Shown here in pieces: positions 5,902 through 35,210 of a stretch of 40,754 nt of DNA (the stretch's first letter is position 1; every line of letters starts with the position of its first letter). The stretch lies in the UHGV virus genome UHGV-1474357; one strand, 5' to 3'. The translations under genes and the position numbers were made by a program. This DNA is from a virus. Under the pieces are notes generated by a model. That model was not told the DNA's origin. It was given only the letters and a program-made list of their open reading frames with translations, and searched no databases.

Positions 5902-6486
5902 TTATTGTTTGTTTTTTTCGTTCTGGTTGATGACAAATTCAATGTAACTTTCGATCTTTGCTTTCTCGGTTTCGGGTAACAATGCGTAGCGCGAGCGATC
6001 ATAGTTGATGGTCGCAGGGTCGTGCGGGTGAATCAGTAATTCATAGCCGTGACGCCCGAATGCGGATGCAACATTCTCCAGGGTGGAAATGGAAACGCTG
6101 ACCTCATTGTTTAACAGGCGGCTGATTGTCACCTGGGCTACGCCGGATGCGCGGTGAAGTTTTCCCTGTGTTGAAAGGTCGCGGCTTTCGCTCATCCAGC
6201 GTTCCAGGTTGTGAGCCGCCAGCTGGCCAATGTCGCTTGGGCCGACAGGCTGAAAACCTTCCTGAGAAAGCGAGCGATCGATATCAAGCCAGTTACGGGG
6301 TTTATTGGCGGCAGCTTCAATTTTTCGTGCAACCTGGTCGCCGATAACCTTCTTGCCAAGAGCCCAGCGGTTTACCAGATTTGCCTGAGTTCCAAGTTTT
6401 TCAGCCATCCGCGTCTGAACACCATTGAATTCACGGTCGATCAAGTCGTTGAGATTTTGCCTGCGGACGTCCTGGATACTTTTCAT
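5902..6486 (-). CDS. Prophage repressor (CI-like), two HTH-like segments, no S24 peptidase domain
   Basis: 194 aa; HTH-like segments (QTRMAEKLGTQANLVNRWALGKK and VAQVTISRLLNNEVSVSISTLENVASAFG); divergent from the Cro-like gene; no Ala-Gly/Ser-Lys LexA-like autocleavage module recognisable. Confidence 0.75.
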   Translation of the reverse strand: MKSIQDVRRQNLNDLIDREFNGVQTRMAEKLGTQANLVNRWALGKKVIGDQVARKIEAAANKPRNWLDIDRSLSQEGFQPVGPSDIGQLAAHNLERWMSESRDLSTQGKLHRASGVAQVTISRLLNNEVSVSISTLENVASAFGRHGYELLIHPHDPATINYDRSRYALLPETEKAKIESYIEFVINQNEKNKQ

Positions 6487-8071: not shown

Positions 8072-8828
8072 TGAGTACGATCGCTTTCGTGGTGGGCATG
8101 ACCACTCGACGGCGGTTGCTTCTGCTGACGATGAAAGGGCAAAGAAGGAGCAGGTTGCAAGAATTTTCAACGAAATGTTTGTCCAGTTACAGGCTGCATT
8201 TCCAGGCAGCATCGCTGCTATCAGCGAGCAAGGAAAGCTAAACGAATTTCGAAAACAATGGATGCTTGCGTTTCTGGAGAATGGGATCACAACAATGGAA
8301 CAGGTTAACGCTGGTATGCGCCACGCCCGCGCCAGTGAATCTCCGTTCTGGCCGTCGCCTGGGCAATTCATCAAGTGGTGCAAAGACAGCAAGATGGTTC
8401 TTGGCGTCACCATTGACGATGTGATGGCGGAGTTTCACCGGTACAGCAAGGAAAAAAGTTTATATCCTGGTGGTCCCGAAAGATTCCCGTGGCGACATCC
8501 GGTTATGTACTGGGTCGTATGTGATACCCGCCGTGCAATGTATCAGCGCCAGCTTAGCGAGATTGAGGTTGAGAAACACGCGCGCAGGCTGCTCGATGAT
8601 TGGGCGAAAAAGGTGGCTTCCGGACAGCAGATACCCGATCCGGTGATCAGCATACAGGCAAAGCCAGAACCCATGAGTACACCTCCGGACACAGGGAGAG
8701 ACGTTTACCATCCACCAGGGCGAAGTTTCGGGTGCATGCCTAACGCCGCCACCCTTGGGGGAATAACACCGGCGCAGTGGCTGATGGAGGAATACAGGCG
8801 GGGAAAGGCGGCAGGATTTATCAAGTAA
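8046..8828 (+). CDS. Replication protein P-like (helicase loader family)
   Basis: 260 aa; start at ATG 8046 (GAGG SD) overlapping the end of the O-like gene; sequence character consistent with the lambda P family; follows the initiator. Confidence 0.65.
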   Translation: MKSTPELLNEYDRFRGGHDHSTAVASADDERAKKEQVARIFNEMFVQLQAAFPGSIAAISEQGKLNEFRKQWMLAFLENGITTMEQVNAGMRHARASESPFWPSPGQFIKWCKDSKMVLGVTIDDVMAEFHRYSKEKSLYPGGPERFPWRHPVMYWVVCDTRRAMYQRQLSEIEVEKHARRLLDDWAKKVASGQQIPDPVISIQAKPEPMSTPPDTGRDVYHPPGRSFGCMPNAATLGGITPAQWLMEEYRRGKAAGFIK

Positions 8829-15643: not shown

Positions 15644-15720
15644 TGGCGTGGCATGCAGGATTCGAACCTGCGACCAACCGCTTAGAAGGCGGTTGCTCTG
15701 TCCGACTGAGCTAATGCCAC
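15644..15720 (-). tRNA. tRNA-Arg (anticodon UCU), argU-like, CCA encoded
   Basis: Minus-strand sequence GTGGCAT-TA-GCTC-AGTCGGACA-GAGC-A-ACCGC-CTTCTAA-GCGGT-TGGTC-GCAGG-TTCGAAT-CCTGC-ATGCCAC-G-CCA folds as a canonical cloverleaf with all four stems Watson-Crick paired; anticodon loop CU-UCU-AA. Confidence 0.9.
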
Positions 15721-33105: not shown

Positions 33106-33762
33106 TCAGAAGACCCCTGCCTTGTCGTTGATGTATTCCGCGTGGGTCTGGATATCACGCAGGCATTTACTCACACCGACGATGTAGCAGAACATGGTAG
33201 TCAGCTCCGCCGCCGCGCCCGATACGTCGTGCCCGTCGTCCTGTAACTGGTTCAGCAGATTCATCAGCAGTGAGTTCTCCGTCAGGCCGAGAACACCAGA
33301 TGGGGAATGAATCAGGCTGCGGTAGCCGGGCTTCAGTGGGGCGCTGTATTCTTTTTTGTCTTCCAGCTTGATCGCCTCCATAATGGCGGGCATGAAGCCT
33401 GACAAGACCTTCTCCACTTTTGTTTCTTGTTGTCTTAAACGTTTCTCGCATTCAATGAAGTAGCGTCGCACCTGGCGACCTTTTTCGTTACGCTCGACCA
33501 TCGCCAGCTCTTTGGCTGTATCAAGGGTGAGGTGGTACTCTTTGCGGTTGTGGCCGCCTCTACCAGATGTTTGCTTTCCCAAATTGGAAAGCAAAATATA
33601 GTCTTGATTTTCAATGAATTCGTATTCTGATATGCGATTTGTAATCCATGCTGCAAACACCTTTTTAACACCTAAAAAAGCGTGCAGATCGCGGGCATTA
33701 CAAAGTAGGGCTGTTTCGTTAGATATAGTGCCGTTGAATACGGGGATGAGTTGAGCGTTCAT
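33106..33762 (-). CDS. Antirepressor-like protein (Bro-N/AntA-like N-terminal domain, Ant C-terminal domain)
   Basis: 218 aa; N-terminus [27 protein letters not shown] and central [26 protein letters not shown] resemble phage antirepressor families; GGAG SD; C-terminal 70 aa homologous to the small gene at 34913-35170. Confidence 0.7.
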
Positions 33763-33920
33763 GATGGCGTCTCCACTTAGCGAATTACATCACCACCGCT
33801 GAGACCAATCAGATGGTGGTGAACTGAACGGAGTTGGTCTTACCGGCCTAAGTGGTACCGGCGTCCTTTCGGACCCCCATTCAGCCCACCATAATTCTGG
33901 CATGACTGTGCTATACGCAT

Positions 33921-34030
33921 AAAAAAACCACGTCTGGCGTGGTATGCGCCACTTAGTAATCCGGGAGACCAATCCCGGCACTGGATTTTGCCAGTGCCCG
34001 ATTACTATGGCACAAGAGGAGTGCAATGTA
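33921..34030 (-). ncRNA. Candidate structured leader / small RNA with intrinsic terminator upstream of antirepressor gene
   Basis: Minus-strand hairpins GGCACTGG-CAAAAT-CCAGTGCC and CCGGGA-TTGGTC-TCCCGG, then terminator ACCACGCC-AGA-CGTGGT plus TTTTTTT (33921-33943); promoter-like TTGATT / TTATCA hexamers at about 34081-34049 and a dyad operator at 34034-34048; no credible ORF. Confidence 0.3.
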
Positions 34031-34033
34031 AAT

Positions 34034-34048
34034 TTACCGCAAAGGTAA
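34034..34048. promoter_or_regulatory. TTACC-N5-GGTAA dyad (TTACCGCAAAGGTAA)
   Basis: Perfect arms; directly abuts the -10-like hexamer of the putative leftward ant promoter. Confidence 0.45.
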
Positions 34049-34126
34049 TGATAAACGCGAAGAAATATTAAAATCAACCGTATTTGGTTGATTGCGTTTA
34101 ACGCTTGATCACCTGAAAGCAAGATA

Positions 34127-34141
34127 TTACCTTTAAGGTAA
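34127..34141. promoter_or_regulatory. TTACC-N5-GGTAA dyad (TTACCTTTAAGGTAA)
   Basis: Perfect arms; 20 nt upstream of ATG 34162. Confidence 0.45.
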
Positions 34142-34161: not shown

Positions 34162-34890
34162 ATGGAAGTTTTCTGGATAGTTGTTGGTGTGGTTGCGGTG
34201 ATTATTTACGTTATCAACCAGAACAAGACTAAGATCTCTGATCGTACGGTCGTTAATCATAACAAAACGATAAAGACCGAAGATGGGGAGATAACGATTA
34301 ATCGTACACAGGTGATAGAACACACCTCTACTCAGTTTCAAAAAACTGGAGGTAATGCGCCTAATATTTCCGCACCTCCTGCTTATGATAGTGCGGTAAT
34401 CCAGACATATTATAAACAGCAGGAGTTAGCAAAAGAGAGGCAACTGATTCAGCCAAAGCCGTTTACAGCTGAGCTTCCACCTGGAGTGTCAACGCGTCCG
34501 GCATATCATGGAAGATTCCCTGGTGATGACATATCGTCTCAGTCATCTAAAAAAGCACCTCAGGCAGTATCAGAGCCAGCAAGAATACCTTCTGTATCGC
34601 CGCCAAAAGAAGAATCAGCTAACAGAGTTTCAAGTGGTAGCAAGCAGTGCTTGCGATGCAGAATAAACCTACCATATGAAAAATTCAGGAAATCGTCAAA
34701 AAATCCAGATGGATTGACTAAGTGGTGTGCAAGGTGTCTCGATGGCCCAAAGAATACACGCCATATGAAGTGGTGCCCAATTTGTAATGTCCGCAGAAAA
34801 CGAACAAGCTTTTACCCTAATAATCAAAATGCGGATGGCTTAATGGCATGGTGCAAAACGTGCTGGGACGAGCACAAAGCGAAACGATAG
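34162..34890 (+). CDS. Membrane-anchored protein with repeated zinc-ribbon-like motifs
   Basis: N-terminal TM helix (VFWIVVGVVAVIIYVI); C-terminal repeats of C-x2-C...NPDGL..WC..C (CLRCRINLPYEKFRKSSKNPDGLTKWCARC; CPICNVRRKRTSFYPNNQNADGLMAWCKTC); AT-rich; bidirectional terminator follows. Confidence 0.6.
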   Translation: MEVFWIVVGVVAVIIYVINQNKTKISDRTVVNHNKTIKTEDGEITINRTQVIEHTSTQFQKTGGNAPNISAPPAYDSAVIQTYYKQQELAKERQLIQPKPFTAELPPGVSTRPAYHGRFPGDDISSQSSKKAPQAVSEPARIPSVSPPKEESANRVSSGSKQCLRCRINLPYEKFRKSSKNPDGLTKWCARCLDGPKNTRHMKWCPICNVRRKRTSFYPNNQNADGLMAWCKTCWDEHKAKR

Positions 34891-34914
34891 GCCGCTCTTG
34901 CGGCCTTTAAATTT
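34890..34914. terminator. Bidirectional intrinsic terminator between convergent genes
   Basis: GGCCGC-TCTT-GCGGCC flanked by A/T runs; stem nearly identical to the terminator at 32033-32057. Confidence 0.6.
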
Positions 34915-35170
34915 ACCGGGTTTGTTTTCGTAATTGTTCGGCACAATAGTCGAGATGTGTTTGCAGATCCTGCATAGACATCTGTGAGCTGGTGACGTAG
35001 TTAATCAGTGCAGTCAGTTCGGCAAGTGGGCCATCGACATTAAATCCATCCTTATCGAGATCCCGGAGTAATTTCATCAAGTGCGATCCCTCCACCAGTG
35101 ACCTGACGCCTCCCGGCGTGTGAATCCTTTCGGTAAATCCGTCTTCCAGTGGATAGTGATACTGCTGCAT
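34913..35170 (-). CDS. Small protein (85 aa) homologous to the antirepressor C-terminal domain; candidate SOS-controlled antirepressor
   Basis: About 40% identity by eye to residues about 150-218 of the 33106-33762 product (shared PL, IH.P.GV, LM.LL, DG..V.G, AELT, D.QTH..Y); GGAG SD; LexA box 19 bp upstream of the ATG. Confidence 0.6.
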   Translation of the reverse strand: MQQYHYPLEDGFTERIHTPGGVRSLVEGSHLMKLLRDLDKDGFNVDGPLAELTALINYVTSSQMSMQDLQTHLDYCAEQLRKQTR

Positions 35171-35188: not shown

Positions 35189-35210
35189 TAACTGTATGTT
35201 TATACAGTAA
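35189..35210. promoter_or_regulatory. LexA (SOS) box TAACTGTATGTTTATACAGTAA
   Basis: Matches CTGT-N8-ACAG with AT-rich spacer and TA flanks (consensus TACTGTATATATATACAGTA); contains TATAAA -10-like hexamer on the minus strand; positioned 19 bp upstream of ATG 35170. Confidence 0.6.

Follow-up and report, generated by a model that had tools for sequence, protein, structure and literature searches.

The present study concerns a 40.7-kb stretch of viral DNA (UHGV virus genome UHGV-1474357, 40,754 nucleotides; hereafter the window) and the leader that precedes its antirepressor gene, ant, both of which are read on the minus strand. Our analysis indicates, with a probability of roughly 85%, that this leader is a homologue of the immI RNA module of phages P1 and P7 that is fused directly to the antirepressor gene, and that within it the small antisense RNA C4 represses ant while a short RNA acts as competitor. 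Short boxes are repeated along the leader. The 8-mer CTAAGTGG occurs at 33956-33949 and again at 33780-33773 and nowhere else on the minus strand of the window, and CCACTTAGG lies between the two copies at 33855-33847. Similarly, the 10-mer GATTGGTCTC is found at 33974-33965 and 33810-33801, with no further copy on either strand of the window, and AGACCAA lies between its copies at 33840-33834. A hairpin of the form ACCACG-CCAGA-CGTGGT followed by a T-run occupies 33943-33921, and the ATG of ant is at 33762. These boxes, the terminator and the start codon had been pointed out in a preliminary description of the window, and a check of the sequence located every one of them where it had been placed. 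Further copies of the boxes that might serve as targets in trans were sought in the window; one plus-strand CTAAGTGG at 34718 and a few TTGGTCT 7-mers were found, at chance frequency and without the second box.

The elements of the leader are listed below, with the boxes named according to the P1 nomenclature.

33997-33921, minus strand: IsrK-like leader RNA of 77 nt (the a1/b1 segment) with an intrinsic terminator at its end; Rfam isrK match
33997-33978, minus strand: hairpin 1 of the IsrK-like RNA, with compensatory changes
33977-33962, minus strand: hairpin 2 of the IsrK-like RNA, with a1 in its loop
33974-33965, minus strand: box a1, GAUUGGUCUC, in the loop of hairpin 2; pairs with a'
33956-33949, minus strand: box b1, CUAAGUGG, single-stranded, adjoining the 5' side of the terminator; duplex with the C4 loop -12.6 kcal/mol
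33943-33921, minus strand: intrinsic terminator with a 6-bp stem, a 5-nt loop and a U-run; found by an independent pattern scan
33896-33812, minus strand: homologue of the C4 antisense RNA; Rfam C4 match
33890-33815, minus strand: predicted mature C4 of 76 nt, its ends placed by alignment to the annotated P1 c4 (77 nt)
33855-33847, minus strand: box b', CCACUUAGG, in the loop of the second C4 hairpin; exact complement of b1 and b2, with covariation
33840-33834, minus strand: box a', AGACCAA, in the single-stranded C4 junction; complement of a1 and a2, with covariation
33810-33801, minus strand: box a2, GAUUGGUCUC, 2 nt past the C4 match; pairs with a'
33797-33790, minus strand: conserved box GGUGGUGA, just after a2; complement of UCACCACC (33822-33815), the 3' strand of the C4 closing helix
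33780-33771, minus strand: box b2, CUAAGUGG, fused to the Shine-Dalgarno (SD) sequence, b2 proper being 33780-33773; duplex with the C4 loop -12.4 kcal/mol

Two RNA families in the leader of ant

The whole window was compared with Rfam at the curated gathering thresholds and three matches were obtained, namely one tRNA and two adjacent RNAs in the leader. The first of the two, isrK (RF01394), scores 67.7 bits (gathering 50) at 33997-33921 on the minus strand and covers the full model (1-77). It has two hairpins in its 5' part and ends with the intrinsic terminator, so the two hairpins and the terminator of the preliminary description turn out to be this RNA. The second, C4 (RF01695), scores 61.2 bits (gathering 45) at 33896-33812 on the same strand, again over the full model (1-87). 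When the thresholds were relaxed, c4-a1b1 (RF03163), the model for the a1/b1 targets of C4, was also seen at 34010-33958 with 39.9 bits, a little below its gathering cut-off of 46.7, on the same bases that lie under the stronger isrK match; P1 itself scores 51.0 on this model. It was not noticed earlier that the complementary boxes sit inside a tRNA-like C4 homologue of 76 nt, that the part upstream of it is an IsrK homologue, and that the leader has no open reading frame (ORF) of the icd type. A terminated species of about 100 nt had also been proposed. The terminator at 33943-33921 is real as a sequence, but the RNA ending there would be about 77 nt long, the terminator lies upstream of the antisense RNA, and the terminated RNA would carry the target-like boxes a1 and b1 and not the antisense boxes.

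The leader is strongly structured, as its 281 nt were more stable than all of the dinucleotide shuffles (200/200, z = -4.77). The isolated 76-nt C4 segment folds with -40.7 kcal/mol into a closing helix of 16 bp around two hairpins, the second of which carries CCACUUAGG in its loop, and AGACCAA occupies the single-stranded 3' junction; this architecture is backed by compensatory changes. Both a' and b' are unpaired in this fold, and each has one complement upstream and another downstream on the same transcript. On the downstream side, b2 overlaps the SD of ant (GGAG, 33774-33771), which is 8 nt 5' of the AUG; the distance from the 3' end of C4 to this AUG is 52 nt. The terminator hairpin taken alone has a modest stability of -7.2 kcal/mol, a value that is compatible with the partial read-through expected by analogy with Gifsy-1 IsrK (PMC4825925).

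Folded to minimum energy (-100.3 kcal/mol), the 253-nt read-through RNA has a1 paired base for base with a', and likewise b1 with b'; with the modular IsrK and C4 folds enforced, the same RNA reaches -85.5 kcal/mol. From this predicted fold, competition between the upstream and downstream boxes is physically plausible. For the pairing of the boxes, loop-only duplex energies were used in place of co-folding, and by this measure the upstream and downstream duplexes are equal in strength (-12.6 and -12.4 kcal/mol for b, -9.2 and -9.2 kcal/mol for a). In the minimum-energy fold of the short RNA, b1 is drawn into an extended terminator hairpin. It was also observed that GGUGGUGA and UCACCACC can form an alternative hairpin, which is present in the minimum-energy fold of the read-through RNA and is 95% pairable in 20 phages, with almost no covariation as the two segments are too conserved. 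As a possibility suggested by these models, this hairpin would compete with the formation of C4 and put a2 in a loop.

Covariation of the boxes among phages

Similar leaders were collected from 20 phage loci, which belong to phages of Escherichia, Klebsiella, Enterobacter, Hafnia, Yersinia, Salmonella and Hamiltonella with differing morphotypes and genome types. C4 scores above gathering in 20/20 of them, and isrK is above gathering directly upstream in 19/20, with a gap of 22-25 nt between the two. In all 20 related phages the tandem of isrK and C4 precedes an antirepressor-type or regulatory gene. In these phages and in P1, two boxes are complementary to the C4 loop, one at position 40-45 in the upstream RNA (41 for b1 of the window) and one that lies on the SD or the start codon of the gene downstream; the junction of C4, in turn, complements the loop of hairpin 2 as well as a box located 2-6 nt past C4. 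The positions of all four are conserved.

The boxes are diverse. There are 15 variants of the loop and 5 variants of the junction, and each of them matches its own upstream and downstream boxes. The mean energies of self-pairing are -11.8 and -12.1 kcal/mol for the loop and -9.8 and -9.9 kcal/mol for the junction, against -6.6 to -7.2 kcal/mol for non-cognate partners, so that self-pairing is stronger by 3-5 kcal/mol; in 10000 permutations of the partners the self values were not reached once in any of the four comparisons. Pairing of each complementary box with both copies of its target, as claimed in the preliminary description, is in this way supported by three-way covariation, and the search for covariation in homologous prophages that it had called for gave a positive answer in both the permutations and the pair counts.

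The pair counts were made on the alignment of the 20 sequences with shuffled and slid controls, and the observed pairing was far above both. Hairpin 1 shows compensatory changes in 6/7 pairs. The closing helix of C4 is 100% paired in the 20 phages, and 7/16 of its pairs have changed on both sides. The a':a2 pairing is 95% pairable with 4/5 core pairs changed on both sides, and a1:a' is 95.8% pairable with 3/6 pairs changed on both sides. By column counts the terminator (44%) and the first hairpin of C4 (56%) are less well paired. The versions of these two in the window differ in length from the majority, and we treat the low counts as an artefact of out-of-register alignment, as Rfam aligns both.

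The a and b boxes of four of the leaders are as follows.

Window: a = UUGGUCU, b = CUAAGUGG
HEMP4: a = UUGGCGU, b = CUAAGUGG
EC.W1-9: a = UUGGUCU, b = CUACAAAGG
phiV10: a = UUGGCGU, b = CUAAAAGG

Promoter and operator of the leader

The two promoter sites upstream of the IsrK-like RNA, found by a pattern scan, and the copies of the palindrome in the window are as follows.

34032-34004, minus strand: main leader promoter, with -35 TTTACA at 34032-34027, a 17-nt spacer and an extended -10, TG-n-CATAGT, at 34009-34004
34077-34048, minus strand: possible upstream promoter TTGATT-18-TATCAT, matching 9/12 consensus positions; its -10/+1 region is covered by the palindrome
34034-34048, no strand assigned: operator-like palindrome TTACC-N5-GGTAA, abutting the -35 of the main promoter; 1 of 15 sites in the window
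216, 5768, 5830, 6542, 6590, 6927, 8866, 8928, 12836, 12854, 16043, 33025, 34034, 34127 and 35247: starts of the 15-bp palindromes in the window

In the window, in all the homologues and in the annotated sigma-70 promoter P1c4 of P1, the -10 hexamer lies 6 nt before the first G of hairpin 1. Because of this shared geometry the start of transcription was placed at about 33997, coinciding with position 1 of the isrK model. The preliminary description had put the promoter at 34081-34049. A candidate site does exist there, but the sequence makes 34032-34004 more likely to be the main leader promoter, and the upstream site is at best a weak candidate for a second promoter, which by its position could be the analogue of the C1-controlled P2c4 of P1. 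No LexA box was found at the leader promoter.

The palindrome (A/T)TTACC-N5-GGTAA(A/T) occurs at 15 sites in the window, where 0.68 are expected, and all of them are intergenic and often paired. Several lie between a repressor candidate with an HTH_3 domain (5902-6486, minus strand) and its divergent 76-aa (amino acid) neighbour, and others precede late genes. From its sequence and distribution it looks like a putative repressor operator scattered genome-wide, in the manner of the C1 operators of P1, and the copy at 34034-34048 would be bound by the repressor candidate.

Comparison with known RNA switches

The P1 record (NC_005856) gives the order Oc4, P2c4, P1c4, a1 (TTGACAG), b1 (GTTAGTGC), c4 (77 nt), a2, b2, icd and ant1/ant2, with b2 reading GTTAGTGA then GG on the ribosome site of icd. 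P1 c4 carries the complement of b in a loop and the complement of a in the junction, an arrangement that is the same in the window. The window also keeps the order of P1 immI, with operator and promoter(s) followed by a1, b1, a hairpin with a U-run, C4, a2 and b2 on the ribosome site, and its C4 belongs to the Rfam family of P1 c4. Together with the C4 and isrK scores above gathering, this agreement supports the RNA-based immunity logic, like that of P1 c4 or P4 CI, which the preliminary description had proposed. P1 likewise has a hairpin and a U-run between b1 and c4, where no terminator is annotated, and its segment at 8231-8312 of the P1 locus matches isrK over the full length at 35.1 bits (E = 6e-6), which is sub-threshold as compared to 67.7 in the window; the presence of this segment argues that a terminator 5' of C4 belongs to the ancestral layout.

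There are also differences from P1. The window has no icd and no ORF fits between C4 and ant, so that b2 lies on the SD of ant itself and the icd coupling of P1 is missing. The boxes differ (a is UUGGUCU in the window and UUGACAG in P1; b is CUAAGUGG in the window and GUUAGUGA in P1), Ant is a 218-aa protein with an AntA domain unlike Ant1/Ant2 of P1, and the host phage is an integrating podovirus while P1 is a plasmid prophage. The C4 of P1 and P7 is released from the leader by processing; through its pairing with a2/b2 it blocks the ribosome site and prevents synthesis of the antirepressor, and this is the basis of P1/P7 heteroimmunity (PMC12197685, citing Citron and Schuster 1990). The variation of the boxes among the phages compared here parallels that heteroimmunity.

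The second system of relevance is Gifsy-1 of Salmonella (Hershko-Shalev et al. 2016), in which transcription from the isrK promoter ends at the terminator or continues into a conserved region from which a stable processed RNA, STnc1160, arises (PMC4825925). The mRNA made by read-through is translationally silent; when IsrK is provided in trans, translation of anrP rises 139-fold and transcription 8-fold. Binding of Hfq by IsrK and activation in trans of the translation of the long form by the short form have been reported for this phage (PMC4825925). The window shares with Gifsy-1 an IsrK-family RNA with a predicted leaky terminator, a structured region into which read-through is predicted and from which a stable processed RNA would come, and an antirepressor gene thereafter, and an alternative cis fold that pairs upstream with downstream parts is predicted for the window too. 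Compensatory mutations in Gifsy-1 have proved that IsrK pairs through G28:C162 and G31:C159 (PMC4825925). As G28 and G31 fall in a1 (position 25 onwards) and C159 and C162 in the a' junction, we infer from the sequences that the published pairing of IsrK with orf45 is the a1:a' pairing of the C4 family, a correspondence which the paper does not state; in its model the downstream RNA is not regarded as homologous to C4. In contrast to Gifsy-1, the orf45 frame is closed in the window, where it reads MVG-stop (AUG GUG GGC UGA, 3 codons), and no isrJ or AntQ homologue was found near the leader by Rfam. With this frame closed and the own SD of ant lying under b2, ant cannot be translationally coupled to a leader peptide in the window phage.

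Two further systems show what is shared and what is not. The APSE phages of Hamiltonella (Rouil et al. 2020, PMC7313666; LR794147) have the tandem of isrK and C4 before a Bro-N/antirepressor-type gene with the a'/b' regions annotated, but they differ from the window in box sequences, phage lineage and host, and the APSE paper treats IsrK and C4 as separate sRNAs and calls the loop box a'. The sar RNA of P22 immI likewise limits antirepressor synthesis, in the immI region of a podovirus beside the tailspike gene, yet it is an opposite-strand transcript across the ant ribosome site and belongs to a different family. The window had no sar match; the related phage TL-2011b has one at 313-380 of its locus (minus strand, 44.8 bits, gathering 43), about 2.9 kb from its C4 module.

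A model for the control of ant

The following model is the most likely account of the layout of the leader. Transcription would start at about 33997 from the promoter beside the repressor-type operator, and most transcripts would probably stop at 33943-33921, giving an IsrK-like RNA of about 77 nt that shows a1 in a loop and b1 as a single strand. Transcripts that read through would enter the tRNA-like C4 of 76 nt (about 33890-33815). By homology with P1, C4 would be excised from this precursor, with RNase P acting at the 5' end, and would be stable. Its b' loop and a' junction would pair with b2, which overlaps the SD (33780-33771), and with a2 (33810-33801), and this pairing would block ribosome binding and keep Ant off, both in the lysogen and on any infecting phage whose boxes have the same specificity. 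Having the same boxes as the mRNA target, the terminated RNA would most likely titrate C4 and turn on translation of Ant, as was shown for IsrK of Gifsy-1. The family membership, the fold, the layout of the boxes and the covariation of all pairings come from the sequences analysed here; the processing, the direction of regulation and the role of the short RNA as a decoy are modelled on P1 and Gifsy-1.

Several points weigh against this model. Termination, read-through, processing and regulation in the window phage are all carried over from homologues. Since the a1/b1 and a2/b2 duplexes are equally strong, the outcome of the switch must depend on the relative amounts and stabilities of the RNAs, which are not computable, and the direction of the switch rests on them. 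When mature C4 was co-folded with either of its partners, the ant leader or the short RNA, the complex was not more stable on balance; nested co-folding cannot, however, represent loop-loop pairing, and it was set aside as a test for that reason. In Gifsy-1, co-expression of the C4 homologue STnc1160 with IsrK leads to a stronger growth arrest, unlike the prediction for a simple decoy (PMC4825925), and the mechanism of that phage needs translation of orf45, which in the window is closed after three codons.

Alternative explanations

CI of satellite phage P4 (seqA-seqB-seqC) and N15 CA are small RNAs that are processed from the leader of their own operon and have complementary sites on both sides; they control operons for replication or anti-immunity by ending transcription prematurely. 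The small RNA of the window resembles them in that it lies in the leader of the operon it would control and has targets upstream and downstream. It could therefore be asked whether this C4-like RNA acts mainly on transcription, by premature termination at the a1/b1 terminator or through a2/b2 and Rho. We consider this unlikely, with the following points in its favour. The repression by P1 C4 reportedly also lowers downstream transcription through Rho (Biere et al. 1992). In the window b1 adjoins the terminator stem on its 5' side and becomes part of the extended hairpin when the short RNA is folded, so that pairing with C4 could alter termination. The authors of the IsrK study noted the resemblance of IsrK to P4 seqA and raised a termination role for STnc1160, and the 8-fold effect of IsrK in trans on transcription in Gifsy-1 points the same way (PMC4825925). 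On the other hand, b2 lies on the SD or the start codon in every homologue examined, which a pure termination mechanism does not need; a pattern scan found no second intrinsic terminator between C4 and ant, and no model specific for P4 or N15 matched in the window. Control of termination and the translational block may coexist.

It is very improbable that the window follows the published Gifsy-1 mechanism, in which a small leader peptide, orf45, is encoded after the terminator and its translation is activated by the short RNA and coupled to that of ant. The AUG of the conserved AUGGUGG (33892-33890) does correspond to the codon at position 107 with which orf45 begins in the Gifsy-1 transcript, and in that phage both the translation of orf45 and its coupling have been demonstrated (PMC4825925). 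However, the length of the frame varies across 21 phages from 3 to more than 100 codons (in 7 phages it is open at the 300-nt limit of the scan), and no peptide is conserved; ant has an SD of its own 8 nt before the AUG and the helices co-vary as RNA. A leader peptide in the window is rejected on this ORF evidence.

Still less credible is the view that the leader encodes a protein, either hypothetical or of the 'Ash family', as in some phage records. ZX5 has an 'ash family protein' coding sequence (CDS) over the 3' half of C4 and a2/b2, Hafnia phage yong2 has one over isrK-C4, and an 'immunity region' CDS in Ayreon and a 'similar to SF0880' feature in phiV10 cover the same region. Pfam PF10554 (Phage_ASH) matches exactly the isrK and C4 part of the ORFs of yong2 (989-1271) and Ayreon (918-1197). 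Against this, the frame of Ash and orf45 is the one shut after 3 codons in the window, and conservation tracks base pairs and not codons. The preliminary description had seen no credible ORF in the leader. A mechanical ORF does span it (110 aa, starting with TTG, 34122-33790), and it is the sole long one; but it begins upstream of the promoter and has no Pfam match, and an Ash-family protein in the window is rejected on the ORF and Pfam evidence. Part at least of the Ash family (PF10554) may be a conceptual translation of the non-coding isrK and C4 region. Finally, a plain attenuator, whose terminator merely lowers ant transcription while the boxes are chance repeats or a leftover duplication, would explain the terminator-like site between promoter and ant but is ruled out by the three-way covariation of both boxes (15 and 5 variants), and two curated RNA families match the leader.

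Novelty and implications

The leader adds an unannotated instance to a phage RNA switch that is already known; neither the mechanism nor the principle is new. The Rfam families have been curated, the tandem of isrK and C4 has been annotated in APSE, and the P1 mechanism dates from 1990. What is new is the copy in a Uetakevirus prophage, its minimal form without a leader ORF, and its own box specificity. In the literature searched, IsrK and C4 are discussed separately (PMC4825925, PMC7313666, PMC12197685), and neither a link between IsrK/STnc1160 and C4 nor this RNA in Uetakeviruses was found there, which does not prove that no such report exists.

A wider reading, which concerns the whole family and not the window alone, is offered tentatively, as the case for it is somewhat less than even. 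IsrK and C4 could be the halves of one conserved all-RNA switch, in which the terminated RNA is a dedicated decoy of C4 and read-through of the terminator sets the synthesis of antirepressor; the window would then be the minimal form, and the independently assorting a and b boxes of Uetakeviruses would make up a combinatorial code of secondary immunity. The closed frame of the leader peptide makes the window a clean system for the question of C4 as antisense and IsrK as competitor, and finding the two in these roles would reconcile the P1 and Gifsy-1 models. The leader also provides a testable explanation of how Ant is silenced in phiV10/epsilon15-like prophages, and the many different box sequences suggest that prophages which are otherwise alike fall into RNA-based heteroimmunity groups.

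Phage context, ant and neighbouring genes

The window is a Uetakevirus (phiV10/epsilon15-like) prophage of E. coli. Phage phiv142-3 is 98.5-99% identical to it over the matched part (ant and most of the leader), and TL-2011b, HEMP4, ZX5 and phiV10 are related. The records of these five phages carry no RNA annotation at the locus, phiV10 marking a putative terminator only, and in the identical RefSeq copies in chromosomes Ant alone is annotated ('phage antirepressor Ant') and no RNA. The leader was found in 465/5426 complete E. coli genomes, 49 records being at least 99% identical. The gene that it precedes is the following.

33762-33106, minus strand: ant, 218 aa, with an AntA/AntB antirepressor domain (Pfam PF08346, E = 4e-26)

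Overexpression of the gene at the same locus of ZX5 lowered lysogeny and reduced the prophage titre about 1000-fold (PMC9782041), which supports an antirepressor role for the locus. The ZX5 product is a Bro-N protein that is only 39% similar to the phiv142-3 antirepressor (PMC9782041); the ant of phiv142-3 is 98.5% identical in DNA to that of the window.

A near-consensus LexA box, TACTGTATAAACATACAGT, is present at 35192-35207, 22 nt upstream of a gene for an 85-aa protein (34913-35170, minus strand), and its position is kept in phiV10, TL-2011b, phiv142-3, Tyrion and ZX5. The 85-aa protein is 42% identical (E = 7e-20) to aa 137-210, the C-terminal part, of the C4-controlled Ant. From these sequence features, the phage may have a small SOS-controlled antirepressor besides the RNA-controlled Ant. 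The HTH_3 repressor candidate (194 aa, 5902-6486, minus strand) is without an S24 peptidase domain.

Between the 85-aa gene and the leader lies a gene for a 242-aa protein (34162-34890, plus strand) with a hydrophobic N-terminus and a Cys-rich C-terminus, whose match to Stc1 is weak (E = 5e-4, below the cut-off). The gene is missing from this place in phiV10, phiv142-3 and ZX5; E. coli TW10722 has it, and the record of TL-2011b lists it as a misc_feature only. The copy of the palindrome at 34127-34141 is upstream of it. The tRNA found in the Rfam comparison is a tRNA-Arg (anticodon UCU) at 15644-15720 on the minus strand, between the early and late regions.

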